A DNA stretch of 64,000 nt from a virus (Duplodnaviria; Caudoviricetes): positions 1-64,000 of IMG/VR virus record IMGVR_UViG_3300031867_000035; one strand, 5' to 3'. The notes below the pieces were generated by a model that ran no database searches, was not told the origin of the DNA, and saw only the letters and a program-made list of their open reading frames with translations. Shown here one piece after another: positions 10,557-58,064 of the stretch; position 1 is the first letter of the stretch, and every line of letters starts with the position of its first letter. The position numbers and the translations under genes are program-made.

Positions 10557-10560
10557 AACA

Positions 10561-13505: not shown

Positions 13506-13515
13506 AGGAGAATAT

Positions 13516-13900: not shown

Positions 13901-13915
13901 TATTCAAGGAGATTT

Positions 13916-29017: not shown

Positions 29018-29040
29018 AATAATTTTCCTCTCTTTTTATT

Positions 29041-30174: not shown

Positions 30175-30249
30175 AACAATTTCTCCTCGCCTGCTATATT
30201 TTTTTGTTAAGTATAATGACCGTTGGTTTAGCAGTCTTGCCATTATACT

Positions 30250-30332
30250 TTGAGTAATTAAATACTCAATTAGTAGTATGGATTATTTCTAACCCATACT
30301 ACTCGGTTGAATATTTAATTATTGCATTCAAC
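30250..30332 (-). ncRNA. three-hairpin intergenic RNA motif, copy A
   Basis: hairpins TTGAGTA/TACTCAA, AGTAGTATGG/CCATACTACT, GTTGAAT/ATTCAAC; homologous to 32032-32109. Confidence 0.5.
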
Positions 30333-30343
30333 ACAAACTTAAA

Positions 30344-30559
30344 TTAAAATTCTCTTATTATTTCATTTCTCTTCATAGCATCATATAATCTGTCTAAGAC
30401 AGACTTATCTTCTAAAGCAGCTATCTCTCTAACGGTTAAGAAATACTTTTCTCCACCAAAATTATCTCTGGTGTAATAATACCAAAGTCCATCTCTTCTG
30501 TCTTTAAAAGCGTGCCATACTTCTTTTCCTACATTTAATGTTATCTTTAATTCTTTCAT
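30344..30559 (-). CDS. hypothetical protein
   Basis: ORF with RBS gaggag. Confidence 0.7.
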   Translation of the reverse strand: MKELKITLNVGKEVWHAFKDRRDGLWYYYTRDNFGGEKYFLTVREIAALEDKSVLDRLYDAMKRNEIIREF

Positions 30560-30580
30560 TATTTTCTTCTCCTCTTCTTT

Positions 30581-33428: not shown

Positions 33429-33473
33429 ACATTTGTCATTCCCCTTGACATTTGTCATTATTCGTGCTATACT
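33429..33473 (+). promoter_or_regulatory. sigma-70/A promoter with direct-repeat operator
   Basis: TTGACA(33445)-N17-TATACT(33468) with TG; ACATTTGTCATT at 33429 and 33448 flanking/overlapping the -35. Confidence 0.75.
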
Positions 33474-35617: not shown

Positions 35618-35653
35618 AAGATAAGGCAACAGATAACGTTGTCTTATTTTTTT
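35618..35653 (+). terminator. terminator after tRNA, directly followed by extended -10 TGATATAAT (35659-35667) for the giant gene
   Basis: stem AAGATAAGGCAAC/GTTGTCTTATTTT then T-run. Confidence 0.7.
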
Positions 35654-35718
35654 GTCTATGATATAATTAATATAGATAATCGTTTATCCAAAATAAATAG
35701 AGAGGGGTCTACACAAAA

Positions 35719-38700: not shown

Positions 38701-41700
38701 GTAAATACTTTTATAGCTAAAAGATTTGAAATGCTAACTGATATAACTACAGAAGGTAATGAAGAATTAAGAAACAAAGAGTTAGCAGAATTAGAGACAT
38801 ATTTAAATTCTGAATACTTTAAGTTCCATTCTTTATCTACTTCATCAGCTACAGCAGATGTTTCTTATACAATGGTTCCAGTTTATGATGATAAAGACAA
38901 TACTAAAATTAAAACATATAAATTGGATAGCACAGCTACAGGAGATAATATTCTTATTAAGTTATTAAGTAACTACGATAAGAACAAGGCTGTTATTGAA
39001 GCTCTATGCAATAGATATCATCTTATTGATGTAGTTAAAAATAACGATGGTACTTTAACTATTAATACAGCTAATATGGCTCCTTGGTATGCTCTTGAAT
39101 TAGATAATTCAAAGAACAATCAATTATTAGCAGATATTTCTAATAATAAATATTTAAAAACATTTATGGACGTTATAGACTCAGTTGCATATATGTTTGA
39201 AAATTCAGACTTAAATGAATTAAATGTTGTTGATTATGATGAACCTTTAATTCTAAAGTTAAGAGTAGCTACAGGTAACACTAATGGTTCTAATGAACAA
39301 GAATATATCAATATTTATTTGATACCAAGTAAGATAAGTGGCAACATCGATACAGGTACAAGTTATGGTGATGTTGCTAATAGACTTATGGCACTTCAAG
39401 GTATCTTATACTCAACATACGGTTTATTCAAACAAGCAGCTGATGGTGTAGTAAATAATGAATCAGCTGTAAAATATCTAGCACAATTAGGTGCATTACT
39501 TACAGAAGAAAAAGCAATGGACCCATTCTATGATTTCTTAAAACTATTTAACTCAGATAACGAAGAGGAGAGAAGATTAGCTATAGAAGAGAATCTACCT
39601 AAAGCTGTTATGGCTATATTAAGTAGATGTAAATTTAATATGGTTGATGGTAAAGAGCCTTCTGATTCTGTATTAACTAGAAAGCAATTATTAACATTTG
39701 TTAAAGCTGGTGTCTTTGGAGAAAAAGGTGAGTATGCCTTATTAAATAAAATTATTACAGAGAATTCTTCTGGTAAAAATGGTAATGCTTCAGCTAATAA
39801 TATTGCTAAGATTGCTCAAGAAATTTTAGACTATGTTAATACTATAGACAAGATTGAGGGTACTCTAAAAATCTTAAACGACTATGCAGAAAATACTAAA
39901 ACTGATTTATCAGCTAATGAAATATCTAAGCTTAAAGATTGTGTTAACACATTAAAAAATAATCAAGACTTAACCGATTCTTTAGATGCAGATGGTATGT
40001 TACCTGACACAATCAAAAGATTATTAAAAGAGAGTACACTTGAAAATTTTTGGCAAGGGTCCCAAAAAAGAGACAGTCATTTGGAAGCCCTATCAAAAAA
40101 CTTATTAAGACTGTCAGACAAAAACATCCAAAATCAGGAAGAGCTAAAGACGCTTCTTAAAAAATTCTTAGATGAAGATTTGATGAGTATTCAAATTGTT
40201 AAAGATAATCCTTTTGAGTTATCAAAACAATTCTTAATTAGATATTTCAACTCTTTTGATAGCTATAAAAACTCTTTTGATAGCTTTAAAAAAGTATCAT
40301 ACTTCTTAGAAGCATTAAATACTTCTGATTTTAAAGACTTCTTAAAAAATCCTACAGATTTTATTAATGATTATAATGCCAAAAATTCCGCACCTGGATA
40401 TAATATTAAAAATTTCGCTCCTGACTTAAAGTTAGAAGACTTTGGTCATTTATTTATTACTAACGCAAAAGGTGTTAGAAAGACAGATTATAATTTCTTG
40501 TTAGGCTTAACATTAATAAATAAATTCAGAAATGATTTAAGTAAGAATGATTTCGTGGAAGCTTCTTTCTATGATACTGAAACTTACTTAGATTCTTTAT
40601 ACAATAACGTGATTAAAGACCCTAACTCTGTTGAGTTCCAATATATCAGTAGACTATACAAAATAGCTACCGACAAAGATTTAAATATTCATATGCTTAG
40701 CATATCAGACCCAACAGCTAAAAATTACAAGAGACCTTTCAGTACTTTAATGGTACATAATGCTGATGGCACAACAGAGAGTATTGGGGATTTAATTTAT
40801 AAAAGTAATAAAGCTGCATCTGTTCTTGTAGAATCTATAGTAGATGATGCTATAGAAAGTAAGATGGAACTATTACAAGATGGTATAGACTATTACTGGA
40901 GGGATACTACAGTTACCCCAAAACAAAATGTTATTGAGATAGATATGCTAAACTTCTTACCAGCTAATTTAAGAATAGCTTTAAAGTCTTTCTTAAATAG
41001 TAGTGACCTAGCTACAAAGATGGGTGCAGAAGCAAAAATTAAATCTGAAGAACTTGCTAAAGAATTTAAAAATTTATTAGCAGGACATTCTTCAAATGCT
41101 ACTTATTCACAATATAAAGCTTATAAAGTTTTACTTTCTGATTGTTTAGCTTCTGGTAATTTCATATTAAGATATAACGTAGATAACGCTGCATCTATGA
41201 ATAGTTTAAAAGTTTTCTTAACTTCTTGTGGTTATGATAACTTTGATGTTGATGCTGCAAGAAACGGCATATCTGAAATAGAAGGATTAAATTTCAAAAC
41301 AGTAGATACTCATAACATTAATTCAACTTTAGCAGCAGAAAAATTCTATCGTGCTGCAAGATTATATAAAACAAAGTATGGTATTGCAAAGCCAATATTA
41401 GGTGAGAAGATTAAAAAGAACTACACCAATGTTCTATTCAATTTATTCTCGGGAATAACAAAATTTAATGATGATACTAATATACAGCTTCTTGATGAAG
41501 ATGGTAAAGCAATTCCTTATTACAGTATTATTTATAAAAAAACTGACCCTAACAAAGCATACACTTTCGTAAATGCTTTTGGTAATACTGAACAAGCACG
41601 TTCTGAAAAAGGTACATTAAGTGGTGGTGCACAGACATTACAATATATAAATAAGTATAGAGGATTAGGTATAGATGTTAAAGATGATAACTTATCTTTA

Positions 41701-44700
41701 GATTCAAAATCTTTTAAATCATTTACAATAGTTAGATTAGCAGAAAAGACTGCTGAATACTTAAACAACTTAACAGGTAAACAAGCTCAAACTATTCAAG
41801 TAACAATACCTAAAGCTGAGCAAGACACATTCAAAGAGATGTATGAGGATGGTAAAGGTTTCTTTAAAATAATGGGTGAACCTGAAGGAGATACATTTAG
41901 ACTAGAGCCTACTTATAAATCTGCAGAAGAGTTCTTGGCTTATGTTAATGAAGAAGGCTTTGATATAAGACAAGTCTTACCTGTTGTTTGGAATAATGAT
42001 AAATCAATTAAGAATACAGAGTTTAGAGCTTATGAATATATAAGTAATGAAACTTTGTTTTCCGAGTTAGCTAATTTAAAGATTGAAGGATTAAAAACTA
42101 TTGATGATTTTATTAACTTCCAACCTATCCCTAAAGATGAAATATATAGTTTTGATTCTAAAGAATATTCAGATTTCTGTTTAGCACACTCTAATAAGAA
42201 TGTAGGAAATATTCTACAAGATTTGGGTGATATAAAAAATAATTATTATTTAGCTTGTCTAAAATATGAATTAGGACTTTCAAAAGCTTATTCAGATTAT
42301 GCTATTAGTTATCTAGGCCAAGATGCAGACTTAATTGATTTAGCTAATCCTAGAATTTATAAGATACTAGGTTCATTATTAAATGATGGTTCAAGTTTAG
42401 ATGAATACAAATTCAGCTACTTATTAAATAAGAACTATACTATAACAGAAGATGATGTTAATAAATTACTTAAAGCTTTAAACGAAGGTATAACTAATTC
42501 AGAAAATATCTTTCCAGAGCAAGCTACTGATACAGATAATGTAGATACAAAAAATAATTTCACTTCACTTGACGTTGAAAAACTTAACTCATCTAACAAC
42601 GTATCATTAGATATTAAAAAGGAAACTATAGCTAAATTATTAGATGTACTAAGAAACTCTGAAGATTATTTAATTACTAGATTATCAGAACCCATTGATT
42701 TAGTTCAACCAGATAATTTAATTTCTTGCTTAGCATTATTCTGCGAAAATTCTGGAGGTTCATTGTCTATTCCTATGGAATACTTAATGCGTTCATCAAA
42801 GAAGCAACGAGAAGCATTCTTTACATTCTTAAATGCTATTATCGCAAATCCAACAGAATATAATTTTAGTGATGATGATATTAAAAAGTTAAACGATTTA
42901 ATAACATTATTAAATACTAAAATAGATTTAATGACTAAAATAAATCCTACTAAAGATGTAGATGTTAAACCTGCAAGAGTTATATTTGAAAAAAATGCTG
43001 TAAGTGCTCCAAGAGTAGGTGTAGAACCAAAAGCTGGTTTCTTAAGTAATGGTACTGGTAAACTATCGAATGCACAATTACAAAGAATAACAGATTATAT
43101 AGTGGCAGCAGAAAATAATAAAGTTGACGTTGCACCATTCATTAAGTTATCTAGTATTAATCCAAATGATAGTGTTGTAGAAACTCCTTTCAAACACAGC
43201 TTAATCAAATTATTAAATGCAACAGTATGTAAAAATTCCGATAAACCAGGTTCAACTATGGTTTATAATATGGATAGTGATGAAGCTATAGTTAATGCAT
43301 TAGTAAGTGTTCTTGCTTTTACAGAAAACACTAAACTATTATTGCAAGATTTAGGTGTGCCTGAGATTCAAAAAATTCCTTTAGATATATTAATGGAGTT
43401 AGGTTTAAAAGCAAATCTATTAACTACTGGTGCTGACTACCAAGCAGAGTTCGCATCATCCCTTATTCTAAAATGGAATAAAGAAACTAACGAATACTCA
43501 ATAGTTCCTTTAAGAACTTCATCATCAGATACAGAACAAAGTTTATATAGATATTTCTTAGGCTTAAAGACTGGTGATTCTGATGTTAATGATATAACTT
43601 TAAAAACAATAAACGAAGATATAGCTAATAATCCTACCCATTATTTCTTATTATCTTCTTCAAAAAATGCTTTCTTAGAAAGTCCTGATGGTTATAACGA
43701 AACAACAAGACTTCTATATTTAAATGATATCAATGTTCAAAAGAGCTTAAGAGAAAATATGGTTAAAAAAGCAATTATAGCTAGAGATGGATTTGTACTT
43801 AATGTTCCTGGTGAAAATGATTTAATGAATTTATTAGATTCATATTATAATGTTCACGCAGTAACAACTTATGATGTATGGAGAAATGTTGTTGATTCTC
43901 TACGTACATTAGGCGTATCAGATTCTGTTGCAGACTTATTGTATCCTACAGTAGAGAGTTTATATGTAGGCAACCCATCTTCTTTAAACGACCAATGGAT
44001 ACAAGATACTCTAGCAGAATTCATTGACAGCTATAAAGGTAAAGTTCCTTCAGTACAATTCAAAATTTTCTCAGATGCAATAGCTTGGGGAATAACTAAT
44101 AGGGTATTAAAAGCTCAAGATATAGCAGCTTTAAAGAATAATGAAATTGAAATAGAGGCTGCTTATAGAGAAACTCAATTAAAAAAAGGCATAACTCAAA
44201 AAGAAATATCTAATAATACAGAACGTGTAGAAGCTATAATAGATTCTATCAAATCTAATGATACAGATATAATAGATTATGCAAAGCAAAATATTAAATC
44301 ATTAGATAAGGATACTCAAGTATATCTAATTCAAAAATTATTATTAGATAGAAAAGATGGTTTTGATTTATATGCTATTCTTAATATGAGCTCAAAAAAT
44401 AAAACGTTATTTGATATTTCAGAAAGTATAAGACCTACTATTAATAACGAATTATCAAATGACTGGGTTCATTCTCCTAAGAATAAAAGTAAAAACATTA
44501 CTGCCACAAATGTAGTATCAGATACAAATCACGTTGTTTATGATGCTGAATGGTTTATACCAGAAAAAGATAAGAAAAATAGTTTTACAGATGTATATCA
44601 AATAGGCTTATGCTTACGTAAAGCTGTTAATGATAAAGATAAAGCTAGAATTATTGATAGCGATACATTAAATAATTTAGAGAAGCATAATATTTTAATT

Positions 44701-47700
44701 AAAAAGAATATTATGAACAACAAAAATAAATTATATGTTGAAGCTAAAGATTCTTATGATGCAAAGATAAAAGCTTGTACAAGTGGTAAAGATACTTATG
44801 TAGACTCAAAAACAAATGTTATTTACCATATAATCGATGGTGGTCCTAATTCTACATTAGAGGATGATGTTAGATTAGCTTATACTACATTTGCTAAAAT
44901 TATAAATGATAATGATGTATCTGTAATTATGTCTTACGGTGGTAAGAATGATAATAGAGAAGAAATAAGTGATAACAACTTAATAAGACACTGGTTAGGT
45001 GATGCTTTCTTTAATGATGTAGATGAGCTAGATATATTAAATGATGTAGCTTACAAAGTGTGGTCACGTACTACAGAAGATATGACTTCTTATTCAATGG
45101 ATTCAATGCGTAGAGAAGGTAAGATTAATTTAAATAACTCTCTTTTAGAACACGATGCAGTATCTGATAGTTTAGATGAATATGAGTTATTTGTTAAAAT
45201 AATTAATAACAAAATTAATATAGATAACTTATACTTAAAGCCTTTATCTGACATTGCAGAATTATTTGGTGAAGATGTAGATTACAGAAATTGGTCTGAT
45301 GATTTCAAGAATACTTTGAAAGCTGTTAAATTTAATGAGTTAAAAGATATAACAGATAACTTAAAAGATATTGTATCTAAAATAGATATAGATACTTCAG
45401 TTTTTACAAGAAGTAATGAAGCTATAAAATCTGTTATGGATGCTTATAAATTAACATTCGAACACGTATGGAGAAGAATGGAATTTAAAGATTTAGAGAA
45501 AGTTAGAAATAACTTCCTAGATATTTATGATTCAAGTTATAATTCAACTTACTTTGCTTCTATTAAGAATAAAAAACATAGAACAGAAGTTAGAAACATT
45601 CTTCTAGGCATTGTAAACGAAAGATATGATTTAAATGAAGGTTTCTCTGCTGTATTGGAAAGAGACCCTGTAACTAACAAATTTAGAACATCTGATATTA
45701 AAGGTGTAGAAAATTTAAAAACCGCTTTAAAGTATATGACTTCTATATTAGCCGAAGCCGCAAGACTATATAAAGAGGATACAAAAAATCCTTATAATCC
45801 AAAATATATTTCAAACAGAAATAAAACAAAGTCCTTCTATTCAGAAGATGCACAGACTATAGCAAGATATATTGCTGAAGCTAAAACAACTTTTGAAATT
45901 ACAGACTTAGATGCAAGACGTAGTAAAAGAAATGACTTTAAGCAAAATGAGAAAACTTTAACACAGGCTGTAATAGATTCAAAGTTTAATTTAGATAATA
46001 ATACATCTGAAGCCTTAAGAGATATATATTCAATGTTAAGAGATGAATCAACTGATTTGCTTTCATTGAAAGATTATAAGCATACAGTAACTAACCAAGA
46101 TTTTTATATCCAAATTGCTAGACCTTTGGCTAATGTATTAGGTATTAATGTTCAAGATTCTGACGCTACAGCATCAGATGAAGTTGTTTCAAAAACATTC
46201 TCCGATAAATTAAGAGCTGCCTTATTCAATGATTTACTAAGTGTATATGGTAGAACAAATGCAGGTAAGAGAACTCACGAGCAAATAATAAAAGATAATA
46301 CTTACAATGGAATAAGACATACCTTAATAGATAAAGCAGATACTTATAAAAAAGGAATGATTGAGGCATTTACTTCTAGTAAGGGTTTATTTACAGGTAA
46401 CTTAAGAACTAAAACTGCTTTATGGTCAATGGGTCACGAAAGATATAAGAAGACAATGACTGGTGAATATGGTACTTTATATATAGGCGAAAAGCTTCTT
46501 ACTTCTAAGAAAGCATTTAAAGATTTATTTGGTATGTATAAAGCCACATATAAAACAGATAGTAATGGTAAGCAAGTTGTTGACTATGATGATAACAATC
46601 AAAACACTTTCTATACTTTAGTATGGAGACAACCATTACAGCAAGAAACTCCTATTCAACTTATGAAAGTTAAAGTTGTTGATGGTGATACATTCTCTAT
46701 GACAACCACAACTGCCGATAACTTCTTTAATGGAGACTTCGATGGAGACCAATATTTCTTCTCTCATCCTTCTCAAATAACTAATACTAAAGAAGCTAAG
46801 AGATTATTTGAGCTTCAAAACAAACAGACAGAATTATTCTATAATCTATTTAAGAAGGATAATAAATTAACGCTTACTAATCAAATCTTATTAGAAGAAA
46901 AATATAGAAATTTAGCTAGAGATGTATTCTTAAGCAGTAACGTCCAAAGTGCTTTTAAGGCTATATTTGCTAACATTGAATTATCTAGAGATAGTACAGG
47001 TAAAGCAACTAAAGTTAAAGACCTTCCTATATTCTTAGGTGATGCCACATTAATAGATAAATTTAAACAGGAATATTATAAAGCCTTTGATACAATAGTT
47101 ACTTCAAAAGAATATAATCAACTTTCTATTGAAGATAGAGAAACATTAAGAGATTCATTCCTCGAAAACTTTGGTGTAAGAATAATTAAAACTTCAAAAG
47201 GTACAACAGTTCTTTCTGACAATCCATTCTATCGTGAGGATAGAGATACTACTATGAGATTAAAAGCAACTAGAAAATTCTATATGCTAGATAACCTTTC
47301 TAATAGTGGTATGGATGCTCCAGAAAATGGCCAGTTGGCAAAGAACTATAAATGGCAAAAAGGTTCTGTTGATATGAATGAGGCTTATAGATTATTCTAC
47401 AATTCAACATTCTCTTTAAAAGAAGATGACTTACATTTATTTAGTAACTTACTTGCTAAAGAAGGTAACTCATTAAGCTCTGTAAAGATAAACAAATATC
47501 TAGATTCTTTATCATCTTTAATAGGTAAAGATATGGTTGACTGGGCTAAAGAATATGTTGACAAAGAAATAATAACATACGTTGAAGAACAGCATAAGTT
47601 AGGGGTTAAAGATGCTCAAACTTATAACATAGTTGTAAGAAGATTATCTAATTTAAGTAATGCTATTCAGCAAAATATAATAACTTCAAAAGAATATAAT

Positions 47701-50700
47701 GATGTATTAAATGCTTTATTACCAAAAGTTTTAGCAGTAGGTAATGAAGAAGATTACCAAAAGTATAAAGCACTTCATTCCTTTATGTATAATGAAGGAT
47801 ACATATCTGATAAAGACCCTAGAGGATTCTCTTCAGAAGTTCTTCAAAAACCAGAAGGTGATAAGCTTAACAATGGTATAGATATTCTTGTTGAAGATAC
47901 TTATCTATTTAATAAACTATTTGATGATGAACAAAGAAAAGGATATATAAATACTATAAGTAATGACTCAGGAACTTTACAAGATTTATATCTTAACTTT
48001 ATATTCAGAGGTGATAATAAAAATGCAAACTTTGAGTATAGAGATGGTGCAGAAATTCTTACAAGAGATACTATCACTTCTTTAAAAGGTAAGAGCAATA
48101 AGCTTCTAGGTTTAGGTTCAGCTTATGTTGCTATTGATATATCTGAAGATGGTTCATTAACAGATACTATTGCTTTATTCAATAATGGTCAGAACTCTTT
48201 ATCATTTACTAAACCTGTAGAAATAAATTTCTCTGGATTAACTAAAAAGCAAAAAGATAATCTATTAAATCTAATTAAGAATACACGTGGAAATTCTATT
48301 ATCAAGAGTGAGGATATAAGTAGAGCACTTAATACAAACTTTGATAATAAGCCTTATCAAATAGCAGGCTTTGTAGATTCAGTGGGTAATTCTCTATTAA
48401 ATAATTTAAACAATTTATCTCCTTCAACTTTAAACCACGCTAAATTAATTCTTTTAAACAGAACGCCACTATACGCTATGCTAGAAACAAATGAAATTAA
48501 ACTAGGTATGGTAGGTTCAAAAGCTTTAAAAGGTACAGTAATGAATGGTTTAAATCTAGAAGGCAGAGGAGAGAATACTATATCAGTAAAAGAATCTAAA
48601 AAGAATAAAGATGTAGTTGCTACTGCTAAAGACAGAACTAAAGCTATTAGACCAGACTTAGCTATCAGTGCCAGCTTATTCAAAGATATTAATAGTGATT
48701 ATAATCTAGATTACGAAGAAGTACTTACAACTACTGATGGTAGATATAGAATAATAAAAGTAAACGACTTAGCAATTCTTAATGCTTTAAATTTAGATGC
48801 GCAAGATAGAGCAAGCGAACGTTACATAGATACAATCGGTATAGTTCAAGGTGCCCACGGTACAGGTTCTCTATTCAGTTATGGTAATATGTTCTTAAGA
48901 TTCGATGCTGATAATAACAAATGGGAATTCGACCCTCAAGGCTATAATGAATTAAAAGATAGATTACATTATCATAATTTAGAATCCTCTTATATGGATG
49001 GTAATGGTGCAAGAAATGTAAGACTACTAAGAATAGCTTACTTACTAGATGCTTTATCAGAAGATAAGAGACAAAGAGTATGTATGGAGATTCTTGGTAA
49101 TACATCAGTTCCTACAATAGAGGCCGCCTTAGAATGTATTTATTCTGCAGGTGATTTAGGTGGAGATTTTGGTGAAGACCTTGAAGCTCATATCTGTGAC
49201 CAATTATCAAAAGAAGAGTTTGAAAAACTAGCTCTTAGACTTAATTCAACTTCTAAGAAAAATTTATTAGGTAGAGTTGCATTTAGTGAAGAAATGAATG
49301 ACCAATTAGTCAATAGGTATGCTACATTCTTTAATGAGGATGTTAATAATCCTATAATTAAAAAGCATCAAAAACCTTCAGACAATGTGAGAGTATCTAA
49401 TGTTAGAAACTATTCTGATAATGCTGATTACTTAGCTAGACACGAAGGTAGTACTCACGATACTAATACTTCTTATGTTTCAAAAATTTCTTTATTAAGA
49501 ACTATTCTTGAAGAAAACGGAGGCTTCTTAAATCTTGCAACATTAAAATCTGCAGCTGATGAAGATATAATAAATATAGCAGATGGCTCACTAGGTACTT
49601 TATATAATGGCTATAAGTTTACTGATGCTAGAGAGAGCTTAGCCTTAGACCCTTATGATGAAGAAAAACAATCATCTAAAAAGGCAGGTAACAAAGAGCC
49701 TTCTTCTCAATATAATGAGGTAAGAGATAATCAAAGATTAATACCTTTATTATCTAAAAGTGTTTTAAGTGATAGTTATAAAGATTCATTAACTAATGCT
49801 AACGCAGATATATTATTAAATAACAATTTATATCAAGATGCAGCTGCTTATAATCAAGCTAGATTTATGCTACCTTTCTTCTCAGAAGGAACTGATTCAC
49901 AGATATATGATGCTACAAACCTATTCTCTAATAGATTCGTTGACTCATTACATCAAAAATATCCTACAATGAATGAAGAAGGTCAGCTAAGAATAGGTAC
50001 TAAAACATTCAAACCAGAAGTAAATAAGGAAACTAATATGCTTAGCCATTTAACAATGGAAGAAGAGGAACAGAGAATCATTCAAAACTCTAAATCTCCT
50101 AAGCAAGTTAAGTTACTATTAGAAAAGCATAAAGAGATTACTGACCAGCTAACTAAAGAAGATTATGAAACTTTAGGTTTAACAGACCAATTAGCAGTGG
50201 CAGACTTAATTTCTAAAACAGGTAATTCTAAAATAATGTCTTTCTTAAATGAGCTTTGTAAAGAGTATGACATTAAGACAGAGTATGAAAACTATAATAC
50301 TACTCCTGTCCAAGGCGACCCATTCTCCTTACTAAGAGCTATAAGAAGAGATAATAATGATGTACTACACGTTGCTGAATTCTATTCAGATGATAATGGT
50401 GTTAAGCTAGTAAACTCTTGGCTTAGAAGCTGGGGTTTCAAATCTTCAGATAATAGAGATATATCTTTAGGTAATCAAACAATCAATGCCAGAAATAAAT
50501 TCGCTGATGTAAAAGACCAATTACTTGGTGATGATTATGCCTTATTAATGTATAATGCTAAGCACAACAAAGCTTCCTATATGTTATTAAATCAGTATAT
50601 GAATGCTGAAGAATTAATTGAAGCTTATGATGAATTAACTTATAGACAAGATGTCTGGGTAAAGACTTTAGGTAGAGACAAATATACCGAGTATTTAAAT

Positions 50701-53700
50701 GAAGTTAATAGACTTATTGATGGAGATATAAATTCTCTAAGAAATAAGCAACAAGAAATACTAAAGAGTCATCCAACATTATCTATCTTAGTAAAAGCAG
50801 CAAGCAGAATAAATAAGAGACTTATGCTAGAAACAAGAGCACAAGACCCTTATGCATTCTTAGGTTGGTTTACAGATTTAGATTATGGCACTAGACCACA
50901 CTTACTAGGTTATAAAAATGTACAAATAAAAACATTTGTAAAAAATGATTTCATTAAGGGGTTAAACTTTGATTTAGAAAAAATGCCTGAATCTAAGTTA
51001 GCTTCTATCTTCCATTCAAAAGATTACGGTTATGTTCCTATGGTTGAGAAGATAGCTTCACAATTAGCAGCTGCTAAAACAACAGACAGTCTTGCTAAGT
51101 ATATGAAGTCAGCTGGTTATATGCAAAATGTTGATACATTTAATATAGCTATGGACACTTTACAACAAACACTTGATAAGTATTTCGAGACTTATATATC
51201 AGAACCTGGTAATGATAGAGAAAATAACAATAGAGCTACATACGACACATTAGTTCAACAATGCTCTTTAGCTGGAATCGATATGTATGATGTAGGAGAC
51301 TATGCAGATGAATCTTCTATATATGATTTATTTAAATACTTATACAGAATTAACGTTGAGAATAAAGAAAAATTAGGTATGGCTGGATTAGGTTCGGCAG
51401 ATTATACTCAAGAACTATATCAAAGATTAATTAATGCTAATGATTCTCAAAAGAATATTTATAAGACTGCTTCTAAAACTAATGAAATACTATTAAGTAT
51501 GACTTCTGTATTAGTTAATATGATGGAAGAACTTGATTCAAATAAAACATTATTAAAAGATATTAACAATTCTTTATTAAAGTTAGAATCAAATGGTAAA
51601 GTATTAGTTGATAGATATGGTCAAAAAGTTAATAGAGGTAAGTTAATTAATGATTATTCAAGTTGGCACATTTTTGAAGACTTCTTACATTTAGCTTCAA
51701 GAGATTTAGATAACAGAGATTATCTATCAACTTACATTGCTAAACAAGCATTAGAAGGTAATGTATACTTAATGGATTCATCAGTAGCAGACCAACTAGA
51801 AAAGAAAGTATTTACTAAACGTATTCATTCTCAAGTGAGTGAGGCTATTAAAAAAGCAAAAGCAATAGCTACAACATTAGTAATGTCTTCACCTGTCCAG
51901 TTATTAGACAGAATGATTAACTTCCCTATGTTTGATATAGGAGTAACTGGTTCAGCAGATGTAGAAACATTTAAATATATGCCTACTGCTATTTCAACAG
52001 TAACTAAATTCATACAAGGTGGTGATTACTTAACAGAGGATGATATTGCAAAAGATGATAATATGAAACTTCTTTTAAGATTCTTATCTGCTCAAGGTAA
52101 TTTAGATATTAAGAATGCAACAGTTCGTGGCGAAAGAATATCCGTAACAAATATTCCAGGTATTAAACAATACTTAAAATTAGTTAATACAATGTATCAA
52201 GCAGGAAATTTAATTCCTAGATTCGCTTACTTTATGAACCTAGTTAATAGTGCTGATATTAATTATAAGATTGCTAAAAACAAAACTGGTGTTGCTTATC
52301 ATCTATATGATTCAATAGTAGGTGTTGAAGGAGATAAAGCTACTGGTATCAAGTCTTATATTGATAATCCTGAAAAAACTCCTTATTATAAAGAGTTCGG
52401 TGAAAACGCTAAGAATGTGGCAGACCTAGATGCACAAGCTGTACAAATCATAGCAGAGCATAATGGTATCGAAGGTAATATGCCTTATGCAGCTAGATGG
52501 TTAAACGAGAATTATAATACAATGTTCTTAACATTCCCTATGGCTTTAATGCGTTGGGGTAAGAATAGACTTCAATCTCTAGGCTATGCATTTATGGAAT
52601 CTGATTCTACAGACGTAAACTACTTATTAAATCAAGCAAAGAGTGTATTAATAACTCAAACTATTTTACTTGCAATTCAAATCTTATTATCTCAAAATAC
52701 TCAAGAATATCTTAAAAAGAAATTAACAGGTAAGGACGATGAGATAACTGAAGAAGAAGAGGAGAATGCACAGAATATATTATTCCGTGGTGGCTGTGTA
52801 AAGTTATTTGAATCAGCATTAAAAGGTGAAGAAGTAACTACAACGGCTCAGAATAGAGGACCAGCATCTGGTTTATTCAACAGCTATGTAGCAGACTTTA
52901 TTCCAGCATTTAATGATGGTCAAAAATTTATGACTACATTAAAGAATCAATTAGTATCTCACACTTGGGGTCACGTACCTTTTGTAATTAAAGATACAGT
53001 TGAATCTATCCCAGGTAACACTGCATTACAATCTGCTTCTTGGTACGTACCAGGTAATAACTTCTTCGAAAACTATGGTAGAAAGATACTTGGTTACAAT
53101 TTAGGTTCTACTCAAGCTAATGCATTTATAGATTACTTACAAGCTCATAATGCTAATAATGATTTAAATGAGTCAAGTGTAGCTAGATTACGTAATGCTA
53201 TGTCGTATGCATTTAGCAAAAAATATTCTAATTTAAAAACAAACAAATCAGAAGTAAGAAACTATAAGAAAGCTTTTGAATTAGTTTATAATTATTTAGA
53301 TACAGTATATGGTAATTCATCAATTACTTCTGCTACTACATCAACTAATAAAGATTTAAAATCTGAATTAAGAAAAGCAGTAGAAACTTCTAACTCATCT
53401 GCAGATGTATATTATACAATTCAGAGAGCTATATCTAAAGGAAGTTCTTATTCAGATATTCAAAAAGCTTTAAACTCTATATCTTTAAGAGAAAGATTAT
53501 TAACTCTTAGAAATTATAATGCATTTATAGATTCACTTGATAGTAGTGAAAAAGCTACAATCAAAACTGCATTACTATACGAAGAAGAAAATTATCCTTA
53601 CTTGGAAGATATATTAACCGATGTTAATAATAAAGCTCACAAAGAATATCTAAATTCTAACGCTTCTTATAGTTCTAGAAATGTAGCTTCTATATTAAAA

Positions 53701-53967
53701 AGTATGGCTTACAATACTCCAACTTATTATAATTACAACTCAAATCGAAATAATTATATTAGTCAAGCTAGATTCTTAAATAATTACAATAAATCTTATA
53801 GTAATTATCAAAAGCAGCAACAAGATGCTTATGAAAGAATGCGTAACATTGTTGACTATGGTACTTCAAAAGATATTTGGGGTACTGAAACTCAACATTA
53901 CAAAGATGGTACATCCTATACAAAGAAAGATAGAGGGTACAATCCATTTAAAGGAGGCAATAAATAA
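35719..53967 (+). CDS. giant polyvalent virion protein containing a two-barrel RNA polymerase (beta'-like then beta-like) and a DEDDh exonuclease
   Basis: 6082 aa; WRQPLQQ...NGDFDGDQ; LGLGSAYVAI..TDTIAL, IKLGMVGSKALKGTV, PDLAIS; VVYDAEW...HDAVSD; N-terminal hydrophobic segments. Confidence 0.82.
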   Translation: MERDYKNNNIFYENTEDLNIGKTNQKPAEVEQSTPKFSIKLDKDEEAARQQGFLNFNSGVSMIDTSEYSQSDIRSMLGSRTKVDLSDTKEDTGTYNTTKALAEDYVSQDEEYITSGRLWKDIYGSTAYAELKHKCGLSKTDSYTDYYNKTKYIPKGYEIEAKLLLAEEKRMNYYMEYKKGNISKSDFLYQAYGKDLMKEDGVDLSSPLYWYNKAKKNDFTNPLDSDTFLSQLITDSEKLWHAETWYQSAATRNIGSTLAGLSTGSELSEESFQNVFKQQVEALKPYFDNDVKKIMTYYQAGFLGSAFSPMIDIDGDGKYDYYYHSDGKLYAVDGSSGTGSSTCSIVYNDDGSVHSVQVHEAVDGWLDSLWDGFTGFFIGFADLFALIPGLINTDAMANYEAWKKRTIADEDRVVFDSMDKWNGDDWGNAVAEGVGTIAGMVLLLVLTYGIGNAISASGEAAKAGMDAGLQGAVKITSQETATTFAENIAKEAADKFTSKALQRAFMDNALKAATKEISKNVALDAAIKTALKEGAKKFGASAARATALNIGRNVAAAVVGKGGFTTTISQAKGGTLLNTTLAKVAQRSSSTGLKKIAANAWVRSSLTATELAVRDYITVTTQLKAKNKALQYLEYATKGEVKALSDGEIAGRAWLVAGTDLVISTMFRAVGSQGATSRFVKDSDTLLKNINANTADVINRYAQHLKTYCRIDAAFDIFENITTSAVQAAASNPYAKLGSEESWATAMQSIVNPAFIASNLYATYNNLVSWGGRNGAPVSTSIYDDRVEAIARQINISANSLGDQLDTLSEALVAKNSNVSNVIEIQESLDRVKQKTMETLNNSSNSRIDNLLQAAQDLDTLFTEDVVAANKKEILDSFNITLSEYNQIKALIKTYNDNNPDKPIGLITGKVFYSAQKENDANVAKAYKAALDLMTKRSTELKAKEEQVAKIFLKGARFVMTKANEVSLKYVNQLIAETTFKTSGVHLEERYQKIVNTFIAKRFEMLTDITTEGNEELRNKELAELETYLNSEYFKFHSLSTSSATADVSYTMVPVYDDKDNTKIKTYKLDSTATGDNILIKLLSNYDKNKAVIEALCNRYHLIDVVKNNDGTLTINTANMAPWYALELDNSKNNQLLADISNNKYLKTFMDVIDSVAYMFENSDLNELNVVDYDEPLILKLRVATGNTNGSNEQEYINIYLIPSKISGNIDTGTSYGDVANRLMALQGILYSTYGLFKQAADGVVNNESAVKYLAQLGALLTEEKAMDPFYDFLKLFNSDNEEERRLAIEENLPKAVMAILSRCKFNMVDGKEPSDSVLTRKQLLTFVKAGVFGEKGEYALLNKIITENSSGKNGNASANNIAKIAQEILDYVNTIDKIEGTLKILNDYAENTKTDLSANEISKLKDCVNTLKNNQDLTDSLDADGMLPDTIKRLLKESTLENFWQGSQKRDSHLEALSKNLLRLSDKNIQNQEELKTLLKKFLDEDLMSIQIVKDNPFELSKQFLIRYFNSFDSYKNSFDSFKKVSYFLEALNTSDFKDFLKNPTDFINDYNAKNSAPGYNIKNFAPDLKLEDFGHLFITNAKGVRKTDYNFLLGLTLINKFRNDLSKNDFVEASFYDTETYLDSLYNNVIKDPNSVEFQYISRLYKIATDKDLNIHMLSISDPTAKNYKRPFSTLMVHNADGTTESIGDLIYKSNKAASVLVESIVDDAIESKMELLQDGIDYYWRDTTVTPKQNVIEIDMLNFLPANLRIALKSFLNSSDLATKMGAEAKIKSEELAKEFKNLLAGHSSNATYSQYKAYKVLLSDCLASGNFILRYNVDNAASMNSLKVFLTSCGYDNFDVDAARNGISEIEGLNFKTVDTHNINSTLAAEKFYRAARLYKTKYGIAKPILGEKIKKNYTNVLFNLFSGITKFNDDTNIQLLDEDGKAIPYYSIIYKKTDPNKAYTFVNAFGNTEQARSEKGTLSGGAQTLQYINKYRGLGIDVKDDNLSLDSKSFKSFTIVRLAEKTAEYLNNLTGKQAQTIQVTIPKAEQDTFKEMYEDGKGFFKIMGEPEGDTFRLEPTYKSAEEFLAYVNEEGFDIRQVLPVVWNNDKSIKNTEFRAYEYISNETLFSELANLKIEGLKTIDDFINFQPIPKDEIYSFDSKEYSDFCLAHSNKNVGNILQDLGDIKNNYYLACLKYELGLSKAYSDYAISYLGQDADLIDLANPRIYKILGSLLNDGSSLDEYKFSYLLNKNYTITEDDVNKLLKALNEGITNSENIFPEQATDTDNVDTKNNFTSLDVEKLNSSNNVSLDIKKETIAKLLDVLRNSEDYLITRLSEPIDLVQPDNLISCLALFCENSGGSLSIPMEYLMRSSKKQREAFFTFLNAIIANPTEYNFSDDDIKKLNDLITLLNTKIDLMTKINPTKDVDVKPARVIFEKNAVSAPRVGVEPKAGFLSNGTGKLSNAQLQRITDYIVAAENNKVDVAPFIKLSSINPNDSVVETPFKHSLIKLLNATVCKNSDKPGSTMVYNMDSDEAIVNALVSVLAFTENTKLLLQDLGVPEIQKIPLDILMELGLKANLLTTGADYQAEFASSLILKWNKETNEYSIVPLRTSSSDTEQSLYRYFLGLKTGDSDVNDITLKTINEDIANNPTHYFLLSSSKNAFLESPDGYNETTRLLYLNDINVQKSLRENMVKKAIIARDGFVLNVPGENDLMNLLDSYYNVHAVTTYDVWRNVVDSLRTLGVSDSVADLLYPTVESLYVGNPSSLNDQWIQDTLAEFIDSYKGKVPSVQFKIFSDAIAWGITNRVLKAQDIAALKNNEIEIEAAYRETQLKKGITQKEISNNTERVEAIIDSIKSNDTDIIDYAKQNIKSLDKDTQVYLIQKLLLDRKDGFDLYAILNMSSKNKTLFDISESIRPTINNELSNDWVHSPKNKSKNITATNVVSDTNHVVYDAEWFIPEKDKKNSFTDVYQIGLCLRKAVNDKDKARIIDSDTLNNLEKHNILIKKNIMNNKNKLYVEAKDSYDAKIKACTSGKDTYVDSKTNVIYHIIDGGPNSTLEDDVRLAYTTFAKIINDNDVSVIMSYGGKNDNREEISDNNLIRHWLGDAFFNDVDELDILNDVAYKVWSRTTEDMTSYSMDSMRREGKINLNNSLLEHDAVSDSLDEYELFVKIINNKINIDNLYLKPLSDIAELFGEDVDYRNWSDDFKNTLKAVKFNELKDITDNLKDIVSKIDIDTSVFTRSNEAIKSVMDAYKLTFEHVWRRMEFKDLEKVRNNFLDIYDSSYNSTYFASIKNKKHRTEVRNILLGIVNERYDLNEGFSAVLERDPVTNKFRTSDIKGVENLKTALKYMTSILAEAARLYKEDTKNPYNPKYISNRNKTKSFYSEDAQTIARYIAEAKTTFEITDLDARRSKRNDFKQNEKTLTQAVIDSKFNLDNNTSEALRDIYSMLRDESTDLLSLKDYKHTVTNQDFYIQIARPLANVLGINVQDSDATASDEVVSKTFSDKLRAALFNDLLSVYGRTNAGKRTHEQIIKDNTYNGIRHTLIDKADTYKKGMIEAFTSSKGLFTGNLRTKTALWSMGHERYKKTMTGEYGTLYIGEKLLTSKKAFKDLFGMYKATYKTDSNGKQVVDYDDNNQNTFYTLVWRQPLQQETPIQLMKVKVVDGDTFSMTTTTADNFFNGDFDGDQYFFSHPSQITNTKEAKRLFELQNKQTELFYNLFKKDNKLTLTNQILLEEKYRNLARDVFLSSNVQSAFKAIFANIELSRDSTGKATKVKDLPIFLGDATLIDKFKQEYYKAFDTIVTSKEYNQLSIEDRETLRDSFLENFGVRIIKTSKGTTVLSDNPFYREDRDTTMRLKATRKFYMLDNLSNSGMDAPENGQLAKNYKWQKGSVDMNEAYRLFYNSTFSLKEDDLHLFSNLLAKEGNSLSSVKINKYLDSLSSLIGKDMVDWAKEYVDKEIITYVEEQHKLGVKDAQTYNIVVRRLSNLSNAIQQNIITSKEYNDVLNALLPKVLAVGNEEDYQKYKALHSFMYNEGYISDKDPRGFSSEVLQKPEGDKLNNGIDILVEDTYLFNKLFDDEQRKGYINTISNDSGTLQDLYLNFIFRGDNKNANFEYRDGAEILTRDTITSLKGKSNKLLGLGSAYVAIDISEDGSLTDTIALFNNGQNSLSFTKPVEINFSGLTKKQKDNLLNLIKNTRGNSIIKSEDISRALNTNFDNKPYQIAGFVDSVGNSLLNNLNNLSPSTLNHAKLILLNRTPLYAMLETNEIKLGMVGSKALKGTVMNGLNLEGRGENTISVKESKKNKDVVATAKDRTKAIRPDLAISASLFKDINSDYNLDYEEVLTTTDGRYRIIKVNDLAILNALNLDAQDRASERYIDTIGIVQGAHGTGSLFSYGNMFLRFDADNNKWEFDPQGYNELKDRLHYHNLESSYMDGNGARNVRLLRIAYLLDALSEDKRQRVCMEILGNTSVPTIEAALECIYSAGDLGGDFGEDLEAHICDQLSKEEFEKLALRLNSTSKKNLLGRVAFSEEMNDQLVNRYATFFNEDVNNPIIKKHQKPSDNVRVSNVRNYSDNADYLARHEGSTHDTNTSYVSKISLLRTILEENGGFLNLATLKSAADEDIINIADGSLGTLYNGYKFTDARESLALDPYDEEKQSSKKAGNKEPSSQYNEVRDNQRLIPLLSKSVLSDSYKDSLTNANADILLNNNLYQDAAAYNQARFMLPFFSEGTDSQIYDATNLFSNRFVDSLHQKYPTMNEEGQLRIGTKTFKPEVNKETNMLSHLTMEEEEQRIIQNSKSPKQVKLLLEKHKEITDQLTKEDYETLGLTDQLAVADLISKTGNSKIMSFLNELCKEYDIKTEYENYNTTPVQGDPFSLLRAIRRDNNDVLHVAEFYSDDNGVKLVNSWLRSWGFKSSDNRDISLGNQTINARNKFADVKDQLLGDDYALLMYNAKHNKASYMLLNQYMNAEELIEAYDELTYRQDVWVKTLGRDKYTEYLNEVNRLIDGDINSLRNKQQEILKSHPTLSILVKAASRINKRLMLETRAQDPYAFLGWFTDLDYGTRPHLLGYKNVQIKTFVKNDFIKGLNFDLEKMPESKLASIFHSKDYGYVPMVEKIASQLAAAKTTDSLAKYMKSAGYMQNVDTFNIAMDTLQQTLDKYFETYISEPGNDRENNNRATYDTLVQQCSLAGIDMYDVGDYADESSIYDLFKYLYRINVENKEKLGMAGLGSADYTQELYQRLINANDSQKNIYKTASKTNEILLSMTSVLVNMMEELDSNKTLLKDINNSLLKLESNGKVLVDRYGQKVNRGKLINDYSSWHIFEDFLHLASRDLDNRDYLSTYIAKQALEGNVYLMDSSVADQLEKKVFTKRIHSQVSEAIKKAKAIATTLVMSSPVQLLDRMINFPMFDIGVTGSADVETFKYMPTAISTVTKFIQGGDYLTEDDIAKDDNMKLLLRFLSAQGNLDIKNATVRGERISVTNIPGIKQYLKLVNTMYQAGNLIPRFAYFMNLVNSADINYKIAKNKTGVAYHLYDSIVGVEGDKATGIKSYIDNPEKTPYYKEFGENAKNVADLDAQAVQIIAEHNGIEGNMPYAARWLNENYNTMFLTFPMALMRWGKNRLQSLGYAFMESDSTDVNYLLNQAKSVLITQTILLAIQILLSQNTQEYLKKKLTGKDDEITEEEEENAQNILFRGGCVKLFESALKGEEVTTTAQNRGPASGLFNSYVADFIPAFNDGQKFMTTLKNQLVSHTWGHVPFVIKDTVESIPGNTALQSASWYVPGNNFFENYGRKILGYNLGSTQANAFIDYLQAHNANNDLNESSVARLRNAMSYAFSKKYSNLKTNKSEVRNYKKAFELVYNYLDTVYGNSSITSATTSTNKDLKSELRKAVETSNSSADVYYTIQRAISKGSSYSDIQKALNSISLRERLLTLRNYNAFIDSLDSSEKATIKTALLYEEENYPYLEDILTDVNNKAHKEYLNSNASYSSRNVASILKSMAYNTPTYYNYNSNRNNYISQARFLNNYNKSYSNYQKQQQDAYERMRNIVDYGTSKDIWGTETQHYKDGTSYTKKDRGYNPFKGGNK

Positions 53968-55550
53968 TGGCACAAACAATAGTTATAACTCCTAACTATA
54001 AGCCTACTCCAAAACAAATATTATTACATAACGCTCCTGTATCTTACGATGATATTTGGATTATATGTTATGGCGGTGCAAGAGGTGCTGGCAAATCTGC
54101 TGGCATCCTTGCCGATGCTTTTATGTTTTGTCAAACTTATCCTGGTGCAAAATGTTGTATCCTACGTGAAACCCTAGATGCTGTTAAGCAGTCTTTCTTG
54201 GATAAACTACCAACATTATTTCCACCAGAAGTTAATGGTATAAAGATATATGAGTACAAAGAGAAATCTAGTTCTTGGTATCCTTCACGTTCTATAGTTT
54301 TCCCTAATGGTAGCTACATTACCTTGCAGCGTGTTGCAAACTATCAAGAAGCTAAAGCAAAGCAAGGATGGGAATTCCATTACTTAGCTATCGATGAAGT
54401 AACTAAACAAGAAAAACGTACAGTTGATTATCTATTAACCTGCGTACGTTCCGCCACGGTATTAAATAAATATACAGGTAAACCTATTCAGATTCCAACT
54501 AAGGTTGTGTTTGGATGTAACCCTGGTGGTATAGGACATAAGTGGGTAAAAGAAAGATTTATCGATACAACAGTAGTAAAATATGATGAGCATAAAACAC
54601 CTATCCAAACTAAAGACCATATTGAATTTGTTCAAGACCCTAGAGACGGTCATTGGATAAAGAGATTTGTTAGATTCATACCAGCATCCTATATGGATAA
54701 CCCTTATCTAAATGCTTCTTATGTAGCTAACCTTGAGTCTTTATCTGAACATCAAAAGCAGATGGATATGTATGGTAACTGGGATGTAGTAGCTGGAAGA
54801 TATTTCGATTTAAAGCCAGAGCAATTACTTCCACCACAATCTATAGCACAAGACTTAGAGAGACTTGCAGGCCACGTAGAAATTTTTGCTTCAATAGACT
54901 GGGGTTACAAACCTTCCTATTATTGTTGTTTATGGCACGCAGTATTCCCTGACCATAGAGTTATCACTTTTAAAATACTATATGGACAAGAACTTGTCTT
55001 TGAGGATTTTGTAAAAGAGATAGCAAAAGAATCTGAGAAGTTTGAAATTTCAGCTACGTGTTTACCTCACGATATGTTCCGTGGTGGTGATAGGTATAGA
55101 AATGATACTGGAAAAATAATAGGTGAAACTAAATCAGATGTATTTGAATTCTATGGATTAAATCCTATAGGCGTAGAATCTGGTAAAGGTAAAGTAATGA
55201 TGAGATATGATAAAATACATTCAGCAACTACCCTAAAGAATCCTGATGGTGTTTATAAGTTCAGGATATCCACGGCTTGCACAGATTTAATTGAAGAATT
55301 AAACAATGCAGTTCACGATGATGATAATCCTGAATTGATTGCACCTAAGTGTAAAGACCACGCAATAGATGCTTACGGTCATTTCCTAGTATTTTATTCT
55401 GATGACATTGAACCTCTAGGCTTTGAATCTTTAACAAAAGACAATAGAACATATCTTCAGATTTTATTAGATGAAGATGAAAAGAAACTAGAAGAAGAGG
55501 AGGAAGATGAATACACAATTAGTGTTGATAGTATTTTCGATTTATGTTAA
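53967..55550 (+). CDS. terL: terminase large subunit
   Basis: YGGARGAGKS, LAIDEV, CNPGGIGHKWVKERF, nuclease SIDWGY and DHAIDA. Confidence 0.95.
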   Translation: MAQTIVITPNYKPTPKQILLHNAPVSYDDIWIICYGGARGAGKSAGILADAFMFCQTYPGAKCCILRETLDAVKQSFLDKLPTLFPPEVNGIKIYEYKEKSSSWYPSRSIVFPNGSYITLQRVANYQEAKAKQGWEFHYLAIDEVTKQEKRTVDYLLTCVRSATVLNKYTGKPIQIPTKVVFGCNPGGIGHKWVKERFIDTTVVKYDEHKTPIQTKDHIEFVQDPRDGHWIKRFVRFIPASYMDNPYLNASYVANLESLSEHQKQMDMYGNWDVVAGRYFDLKPEQLLPPQSIAQDLERLAGHVEIFASIDWGYKPSYYCCLWHAVFPDHRVITFKILYGQELVFEDFVKEIAKESEKFEISATCLPHDMFRGGDRYRNDTGKIIGETKSDVFEFYGLNPIGVESGKGKVMMRYDKIHSATTLKNPDGVYKFRISTACTDLIEELNNAVHDDDNPELIAPKCKDHAIDAYGHFLVFYSDDIEPLGFESLTKDNRTYLQILLDEDEKKLEEEEEDEYTISVDSIFDLC

Positions 55551-56141: not shown

Positions 56142-58064
56142 ATGAGACAGATGGCGAAAGATATTGCAACATATATCGAAATGTTTGTAGATGACTCTAT
56201 GTCAAGTTTAAACCCATATATTCTGCAAGGCAAATTAAATAATGAGTATATAGCAGGCAATCAAAATAAAAAAATAAATGTAAGAAAATTAAGTATAGAG
56301 CCTAAGCAGACAGACCCTAATGTATATGTAGAGAAGAAAACTTTCAATAGACTTTTGCCTATATATCTTACACGCTATGGTATACTCACTCAAAATATGC
56401 CTATCCCTGGTATCATCCCTCATAGCAATAGTAGCAAAGCAGTTCAAGATTCTTTAGAAGTAAATAAATTTATAAATGAATTTATGTTACAAACTAATTT
56501 TAAAAGCATATATGAAAAAGCTATTAAACGAAATGATGTCTATGGAATAGAATGGTTTAAAACTGGTATAGATTGGACAGCTGGTGATAAGATAGCTGAC
56601 CTAGAAGATGTTACAATAGGAGATACAAAAGGTAAACTTTCTATTTACGAAGGTAGACCTTTCGTTATGCCAGTACCTATTCACGAAGTCTTTGTTGATT
56701 CCTACTATATTGAATCAATGGATGATGTAAATGAGTTAGTACATAGACGTGTATTCCCTTGTGAGTATATTAAAGCCAGATGGGGGTTTGCAGCTGAAAA
56801 AGAATCCGTTGAAGATTCTAAACTATCTACTTATCCTAGATATACTAACTTCGGTATGTCAAATGGTGGAGCAATAGAGTATGCTTACGTTTATGAGTAT
56901 TACAAAAAGCCTGATGCTTTATATCCAAAGGGTAGATACGTTGTAGTTTGTAATAAAAAAGTTTTATATGATGGTATCTTACCTTATGAGAATGCCGCTA
57001 ACGGCAAAAGAGTTATACCGTTTGATATACTAAGGCCTCAAACAATTCCTAATAAATTAATAGGTGTAACTGTTTATTCTCAGTTAATCCCTATTCAAGA
57101 TACATATAATGCTGTAAAGAATAGATACCTAGAGTATGTAAACCATATTGCTATAGGTCAGTTATATTATTGGGAAGGTTCCTTAATAAATAAAAATAAT
57201 TTTACTAACAAACCAGGTAAGCTTATAGGTTTAAAGAGAAATGCAAAAGCTCCAGTACCTGTGCAGAAAGATAAACTTGCTCAAGAGTTTATTCAATATT
57301 TAAAAACACTTGAGGATGATATGCTAGTTACAGCAGGACTATCACAGATGTCTGCATTTGGTTCTACAAAATCAAATGTAAGAACAGATGGAGTAGTAGA
57401 TAAGCTTGCCGAATCCGATGAAAATAAATTAGTAAATGCCTTAGACAATGTATCAGATTGTATGATAGAGGTATTTAAAAAGGTTATTTATTTAGAAAAA
57501 CAAAGAGGTAAGACTCTAACTGAACAATTAAAACTTGCAAAGTTAGATACTTATATGTTAAAATATAAATTAGAAGAGGTGGATGCCGAACAGGTTACGA
57601 TTATTAATCGAGACTTCTTGATGAAATCAGACCAAGTGTTCGACAAAAAACTTCAACAAGCAGGTAATTTCGGTTTGTATAATCCTGAGTCTGGCTTAAG
57701 TTATCAGGCAAAAGTGGAGCTTCTTAATTCAATGCACGCTAATTATCTTAGAGATACATTAGACCCTGCAGAAAGAAGCAACCACGATTTAATTTGCTGG
57801 GAAAATGACTTAATGCTAAACAAAAAGGAGATACCACAAGCTTACGATTACCACAAACACGAACAACATATTGCTGAACACAATGTTTTCCGAATCTCGC
57901 CTGAGGTACTGTGTCTTAAAGAACGAGATGAAAAAGCGTGGGAAATGCTACAGGAGGCTATATCAGCACACATTGAGCAGCATAAGAAGTTCGTACAGCA
58001 AAGTCAACAAGGTAATGTATTACAAAATGCCAAGGACGCACTAAAACGTACAGCTAAAAAATAG
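56142..58064 (+). CDS. portal protein (podovirus-type)
   Basis: 640 aa between TerL and scaffold/capsid; helical pattern, LIPIQDTYN..RYLEY; synteny. Confidence 0.75.
   Translation: MRQMAKDIATYIEMFVDDSMSSLNPYILQGKLNNEYIAGNQNKKINVRKLSIEPKQTDPNVYVEKKTFNRLLPIYLTRYGILTQNMPIPGIIPHSNSSKAVQDSLEVNKFINEFMLQTNFKSIYEKAIKRNDVYGIEWFKTGIDWTAGDKIADLEDVTIGDTKGKLSIYEGRPFVMPVPIHEVFVDSYYIESMDDVNELVHRRVFPCEYIKARWGFAAEKESVEDSKLSTYPRYTNFGMSNGGAIEYAYVYEYYKKPDALYPKGRYVVVCNKKVLYDGILPYENAANGKRVIPFDILRPQTIPNKLIGVTVYSQLIPIQDTYNAVKNRYLEYVNHIAIGQLYYWEGSLINKNNFTNKPGKLIGLKRNAKAPVPVQKDKLAQEFIQYLKTLEDDMLVTAGLSQMSAFGSTKSNVRTDGVVDKLAESDENKLVNALDNVSDCMIEVFKKVIYLEKQRGKTLTEQLKLAKLDTYMLKYKLEEVDAEQVTIINRDFLMKSDQVFDKKLQQAGNFGLYNPESGLSYQAKVELLNSMHANYLRDTLDPAERSNHDLICWENDLMLNKKEIPQAYDYHKHEQHIAEHNVFRISPEVLCLKERDEKAWEMLQEAISAHIEQHKKFVQQSQQGNVLQNAKDALKRTAKK

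Follow-up and report, generated by a model that had tools for sequence, protein, structure and literature searches.

A giant phage protein with predicted RNA polymerase-like double-psi barrels in aspartate-first, lysine-second order

Introduction

Can the two catalytic barrels of an RNA polymerase stand in reverse order on one polypeptide chain? This question is raised by a giant gene in a stretch of viral DNA of 64,000 nucleotides (Caudoviricetes; IMG/VR record IMGVR_UViG_3300031867_000035), which covers the initial 64 kb of a record of 76,295 bases with a G+C content of about 32% and is referred to here as the window. The gene (35719..53967, plus strand) is present in the open reading frame list, encodes 6082 aa and has collinear homologues of 5,730-6,193 aa. 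A preliminary description, made from the DNA letters and their translations, proposed that the middle of this protein is a single-chain two-barrel RNA polymerase in which a beta-prime-like domain with the catalytic aspartates precedes a beta-like domain with the conserved lysines. In described single-chain enzymes the clamp is formed partly by the connector that runs from the lysine barrel to the aspartate barrel (PMC10770324). The lysine-first order, with its connector-derived clamp, is part of the picture that relates the single-chain enzymes and their ancestor. Here we confirm, with limits, the aspartate-then-lysine order in this single giant phage protein, and we weigh what kind of enzyme it would form.

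Results

The aspartate half of the proposed core is solid: residues 3555-3700 (46381..46818, plus strand) form a beta-prime-like double-psi beta-barrel (DPBB-A) with an aspartate triad, detected above chance. The Pfam family RNA_pol_Rpb1_2 (PF00623) scored 26.6-29 bits over residues 3629-3696, above its curated cut-off of 25.3, with E-values from 8e-6 to 1.5e-6. The aspartate motif occupies residues 3671-3677 (46729-46749), and its D3673, D3675 and D3677 are invariant, with R3637, P3639 and N3671, across the close family. We take R3637 and N3671 to correspond to the ribose-selecting beta-prime residues R425 and N458. When a predicted model of residues 3500-4500 (mean predicted local distance difference test score (pLDDT) 62.6, predicted template modelling score (pTM) 0.45) was searched with Foldseek, the best 50 rows were all largest-subunit chains (best E 2.5e-4), and about 180 residues, between model residues 61 and 491, aligned to Rpb1-type chains with a Z of about 7. 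Elsewhere in the window D-x-D-G-D occurs only once, at residue 312 of this protein, where it is part of an EF-hand-like loop.

The lysine half is supported, by structure prediction and by conservation in distant relatives, as a second double-psi barrel with two conserved lysines (DPBB-B; residues 4128-4400, 48100..48918, plus strand). All motifs proved to lie where the preliminary description had placed them: the first beta-like block begins at residue 4128 (nucleotide 48100), the lysine block spans residues 4260-4274 (from nucleotide 48496) with K4261 (48499) and K4271 (48529), and further blocks follow at 4311 and 4386; D4149 is a further residue of this barrel. A model of residues 4031-4430 alone (mean pLDDT 57.1, pTM 0.46) was compared with 48,161 representative solved chains. 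Beta/Rpb2 chains ranked at the top: the first seven were all of this type (Pol I, Pol IV, plastid, African swine fever virus, vaccinia, AR9 and phiKZ; Z 5.6-6.2, 118-206 residues aligned), and most rows below them were other double-psi barrels, with a weak match to phage polymerase gp66 (Z 4.0, 102 aligned) and QDE-1 at Z 4.1. The top 11 rows in Foldseek were also all Rpb2/beta (E from 3.6e-3), and E. coli beta aligned over 185 residues with Z 7.0 and an rmsd (root mean square deviation) of 6.8. Because Z is middling and the rmsd high, it is the ranking rather than the score that constitutes the fold evidence. Approximately 180-205 residues of this barrel align to most beta/Rpb2 chains, against approximately 100 to gp66 or QDE-1. 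Within the confident part of the model is an insert of about 90 residues (4162-4250; 48202..48468, plus strand) at the position of the beta flap or wall.

We gathered distant relatives using the terminase as bait. Wherever their sequence extends far enough upstream, a giant gene with the aspartate motif stands before the terminase (4,460-5,706 aa where a length is given). In an alignment of 17 proteins, some of them less than 25% identical, every row has the first aspartate and K4271, and 16 also retain K4261. A third lysine, K4268, is missing from the distant relatives, which agrees with the earlier naming of K4261 and K4271 as the two lysines. The first lysine follows the aspartate by 432-611 residues in 16 rows. 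Two relatives (L026 and L036) show the canonical eight-residue lysine spacing followed by G-V-V, and a beta profile run over all giant proteins found its best match at the lysine motif of L036, downstream of the aspartates (independent E-value (iE) 0.024). The same order was seen in a held-out relative (L037), with an aspartate block at 904-966 and a lysine block at 1476-1621 (iE 9e-18). Another (L038) has the aspartate block, with a weak match to the lysine block at the expected distance (iE 0.056). An apparent split form (P0011) was rejected, as its late-called start lies within a frame of 5,612 codons that has the same order. The family comprises about 110 terminase clusters above 54% identity. 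One member (L023) has a terminase (10001-11578) 94% identical to that of the window and a very distant giant protein (aspartate barrel E 4e-8) whose aspartate motif has serine in place of glycine; this suggests rapid evolution or exchange of the giant gene.

A lysine barrel before residue 3500 appears unlikely from the alignment. Twelve lysines in this region are invariant (132, 194, 293, 318, 403, 1353, 1860, 1964, 2401, 2649, 3016 and 3237), and, judged from the alignment, no two of them are closer than 25 residues. This absence of a close pair, together with the position of the best beta-profile match downstream of the aspartates, argues against an upstream barrel. Sliding profile-profile beta scans of the whole protein found nothing significant; since they miss even the downstream barrel, their silence says nothing about an upstream one. 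Predicted fold and conservation support an aspartate-first, lysine-second order, opposite to that of described single-chain enzymes.

The region between the barrels probably includes a bridge helix (residues 3850-3880; 47266..47358, plus strand). G3871 is kept in 17 of 17 aligned rows, and in distant members the residues around it resemble what we take to be the end of the beta-prime bridge helix. The helix had been proposed as possible, and it is this motif that speaks for it; the model has a pLDDT below 50 over the stretch, and structural alignments of the aspartate-barrel model stop at about yeast Rpb1 640. Residues 3975-3990 (47641..47688, plus strand) form a helix in the model, two positions of which (Q3984 and S3990) the close family conserves; it is a tentative candidate for the first trigger helix. 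From there to the lysine barrel the chain runs for about 130 residues, too few for the beta-prime jaw and C-terminus or the beta lobe and protrusion to lie between the barrels. The reversed order also makes a lysine-to-aspartate connector impossible. The clamp would have to be built from two separate arms, supplied by helical segments on either side of the core (before 3555, after 4400), or the enzyme would have to be clamp-less like gp96.

We compared this arrangement with known systems. No aspartate-first single-chain case was found in the literature searched, outside which most subscription papers lay, and the giant protein departs from the lysine-first order of gp66, gp96, gp64, QDE-1, PolD, Orf6 and NCgl1702. 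It shares a single-chain two-barrel core with gp96 and gp64 of Thermus phage P23-45, the former a virion RNA polymerase joined with the tape measure in a giant virion protein of 5,002 aa (PMC10770324). However, the lysine barrel comes first in gp96 (484, then 680), and in gp64 the aspartate barrel, at 246, follows the lysine barrel. The giant protein also differs from gp96 in having no tape-measure family, a core in mid-protein and an adjoining terminase, and no sequence match to gp96 or gp64 was found. In crAss-like phage phi14:2, gp66 (PDB 6VR4; 10.1101/2020.03.07.982082) is likewise a virion polymerase of one long chain that serves the early genes of a medium-sized phage, but its lysine barrel (about 902-1105) precedes its aspartate motif (1361). 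Both barrels are also on one chain in QDE-1/RDR2, PolD DP2, yeast plasmid Orf6 and NCgl1702. Again the lysine barrel is first, in QDE-1, in PolD (K386/K392 before D956/D958; PMC4996933), in Orf6 ('Rpb2::Rpb1') and in NCgl1702 ('beta::beta-prime'; PMC2919709). Of the enzymes cited as lysine-first in the preliminary description, gp66 and QDE-1 were borne out, whereas the order in YonO could not be confirmed from its paper. Salmonella phage Arash gp206 (L007:4215-8792), a frame of 1525 aa with a beta-like part and then an aspartate motif at 1434, is a fusion, in the usual order, of beta to beta-prime-N.

The best structural matches of both barrels were the multisubunit beta/Rpb2 and beta-prime/Rpb1 chains, including those of AR9 (7S00) and phiKZ (7OGP). 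These enzymes resemble the giant protein in carrying an insert at the flap position of the lysine barrel; in contrast, their barrels are on separate chains, and for most accessory domains (lobe, protrusion, jaw) the giant protein shows no detectable equivalent between its barrels. An insert of the SBHM kind (sandwich-barrel hybrid motif) marks the lysine barrels of cellular, killer-plasmid and jumbo-phage enzymes and is absent in the group of RNA-dependent RNA polymerases, YonO and NCgl1702 (PMC7824862). The 90-residue insert, for which the SBHM fold is a candidate, and the longer alignments to beta/Rpb2 may set the giant protein apart from this insert-free clade. In Yersinia phages YerA41 and vB_Yru_GN1, one or more separate beta-prime genes lie directly upstream of the beta gene. 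Their products are separate proteins, much closer to cellular subunits and encoded among replication genes, and they provide a model of the route rather than demonstrated ancestors. Fusion of neighbouring beta-prime and beta genes is the simpler origin because of the flap-position insert, the longer multisubunit alignments and the YerA41/GN1 gene order. We therefore favour an independent fusion over permutation of a YonO/gp66-type enzyme, the two origins first put forward; circular permutation of a gp66-like gene would be less likely.

The position of the giant gene bears on when its product would act. Its stop codon ends on the first base of the gene for the terminase large subunit (53967..55550; PHROGs E 2e-34), which is followed by those for the portal protein (56142..58064; PHROGs and the annotation of relatives, where it is P22/SU10-like) and the major head protein (58768..60408; PHROGs E 5e-5), all on the plus strand. 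The giant gene lies in this head-gene block in every relative fetched. It is preceded by a strong ribosome-binding site and, about 50 nt upstream, by a site resembling a host sigma-70/sigma-A-type promoter (35639..35667, plus strand; 10/12 consensus match, extended -10). The best host-type match in 22-36 kb (33445-33473; 11/12 with extended -10) heads the structural block. The head-block position, the ribosome-binding site, hydrophobic stretches near the N-terminus and these promoter matches are the grounds for proposing that the protein is made late through the host enzyme and then packaged, which would fit the pattern of gp66 and gp96. An identical 12-mer occurs three times on the minus strand (33459, 33440 and 31972), and two copies overlap the 33445-33473 match; it is possibly an operator at the switch between two gene blocks. 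Repeated words in the minus-strand block were rejected as promoters, since they correspond to pentapeptide-repeat coding and ribosome-binding sites.

Several other parts of the giant protein are conserved. About 400 residues upstream of the polymerase core is a probable, apparently intact, fused DEDDh (DnaQ-like) 3'-5' exonuclease (residues 2938-3155; 44530..45183, plus strand). The motifs D-x-E, D and H-x4-D occur in order (D2942, E2944, D3085, H3145, D3150), and each of the five positions is retained in 10 or more of the 11 rows of the close family. A pairwise comparison with E. coli DnaQ aligns the last motif (E 0.004). The region has no Pfam match, and its motifs are hard to trace in distant relatives. 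A conserved N-terminal region (residues about 100-450; 36016..37068, plus strand), which matched no known family, contains an EF-hand-like acidic loop (312-321) and the hydrophobic stretches (372-390 and 427-445). The most conserved region is the C-terminal part of about 800 residues (5290-6082; 51586..53967, plus strand), which exceeds the polymerase core in conservation across all relatives and matched no family. A conserved K-G-x-L-x-G-G motif (41600-41640, residues 1961-1970) stands amid the poorly conserved middle. No part of the protein matched a structural family in Pfam or PHROGs, the polymerase region matched no PHROGs family, and residues 3401-4600 compared by sequence with solved structures gave nothing relevant. 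By tblastn over 50,697 GenBank phage records no relative was found, and the nearest terminases there are about 28% identical.

Elsewhere the window encodes a family A DNA polymerase (2490-4463) and two mutually unrelated primase-like proteins on opposite strands (7169-9076, plus; 15931-17214, minus). A GroEL-like gene (13447-15430; PHROGs E 3e-76), present in this 76-kb phage, might aid folding of the giant protein or of head proteins. Its product is about 31% identical to bacterial GroEL from many taxa and gives no hint of the host. Strong GGAGG sites suit a Bacillota-type host; genome bins are weak host evidence, because one relative was binned in a Bacilli genome and another in a PVC-group genome. 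The preliminary description had proposed a podophage of a Gram-positive-type host, with a virion protein injected to transcribe the 15.5-33 kb block; for these points the support is indirect. On the minus strand, three tandem paralogues (27974-31450) match the same PHROG families, and the one scanned in Pfam has pentapeptide repeats and a C-terminal DUF5758 domain.

Discussion

We consider it probable that the giant protein has in its middle a DNA-dependent two-barrel RNA polymerase on a single chain, a beta-prime-to-beta fusion that is packaged, ejected and transcribes the first phage genes. The first barrel would bind the catalytic Mg through D3673, D3675 and D3677, with the bridge and trigger helices next. 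After the linker of about 130 residues, the second barrel would fold back on the first and place K4261 and K4271 at the nucleotide site. The most likely origin is a fusion of beta-prime and beta genes that stood separately in that order, with subsequent shrinkage and divergence. The protein would most likely be made late from a host-type promoter, packed in the head and ejected with the DNA, and its first target would probably be the minus-strand block of small genes at 15.5-33 kb. The giant protein would belong to the two-barrel superfamily and most probably acts as a virion RNA polymerase does.

A number of results weigh against this. The lysine barrel of the window protein has no Pfam or profile match, and Pfam Rpb2_6 matched nothing on the genome or on eight distant relatives. 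Unguided placement of an ordered chain of beta motifs fell at 4130-4396 with a score of 19.0, against a shuffled mean of 18.9; the best profile-profile beta comparison reached E 0.045, and no sequence-only beta test was significant. In the close family alone, beta was not detected above chance by sequence, so the beta-like blocks that the preliminary description read from the letters stand on predicted fold and distant conservation instead. Both models are middling, the rmsd to beta chains is about 6-7 A, and a Z below 8 can reflect merely a common arrangement. The 3,500 residues upstream of the core were judged from sequence. No phage-specific promoter motif was found in the early block, and promoter-like sites are in only modest excess (75, versus 58.8 +/- 7.9 in shuffled sequence).

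The middling Z and the undetected beta sequence, together with an upstream region judged from sequence and the conserved K-G motif at K1964, also speak for an order that is not truly reversed, with 4128-4400 being another double-psi barrel or a model artefact and the true lysine barrel lying upstream of 3500 or on another protein. We regard this as improbable, since beta/Rpb2 chains rank above generic barrels, the two lysines are kept in very distant relatives, with canonical spacing in two, no close pair of invariant lysines was found upstream, and no large unexplained gene exists elsewhere in the genome. A slightly larger, though still small, chance attaches to the same reversed-order polymerase remaining unpackaged and being made during infection, as YonO or a non-virion enzyme would be, to transcribe genes of the middle or late phase. 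A chain of 670 kDa is large for a head that holds about 76 kb, and it matched no structural family. However, its place in the head block of all relatives, the hydrophobic N-terminal stretches that suit an ejected protein, the host-type promoter matches in the structural block and the precedent of the giant virion polymerases gp66 and gp96 all favour packaging.

The apparently intact DEDDh domain raises a further alternative, that the core is a PolD-like enzyme that makes DNA or primers rather than mRNA, with the DEDDh domain for proofreading; PolD shows that the fold is capable of making DNA (PMC4996933). This is very improbable, as the genome already encodes two primases besides its family A DNA polymerase, the fold matches are RNA polymerase subunits, and the DEDDh motifs are unclear in distant relatives. 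The three aspartates, with R3637 and N3671 as presumed ribose-selecting residues, also argue for RNA synthesis.

An RNA polymerase with its barrels in aspartate-then-lysine order would have consequences beyond this phage. We lean towards the view that an undescribed and widespread family of 70-80 kb phages injects a protein of 4,500-6,200 residues with an active, independently fused polymerase that lacks the described connector-clamp and that carries, in one branch, a DEDDh domain, possibly for editing or trimming of transcripts. The family is large, and standard annotation hardly picks up its polymerases. The catalytic part, of about 900-1,100 residues, is directly expressible and testable. 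If the reversed enzyme works, barrel order would be no requirement of folding or mechanism, single-chain fusions would have arisen more than once, and the clamp would be built in another way or be dispensable.

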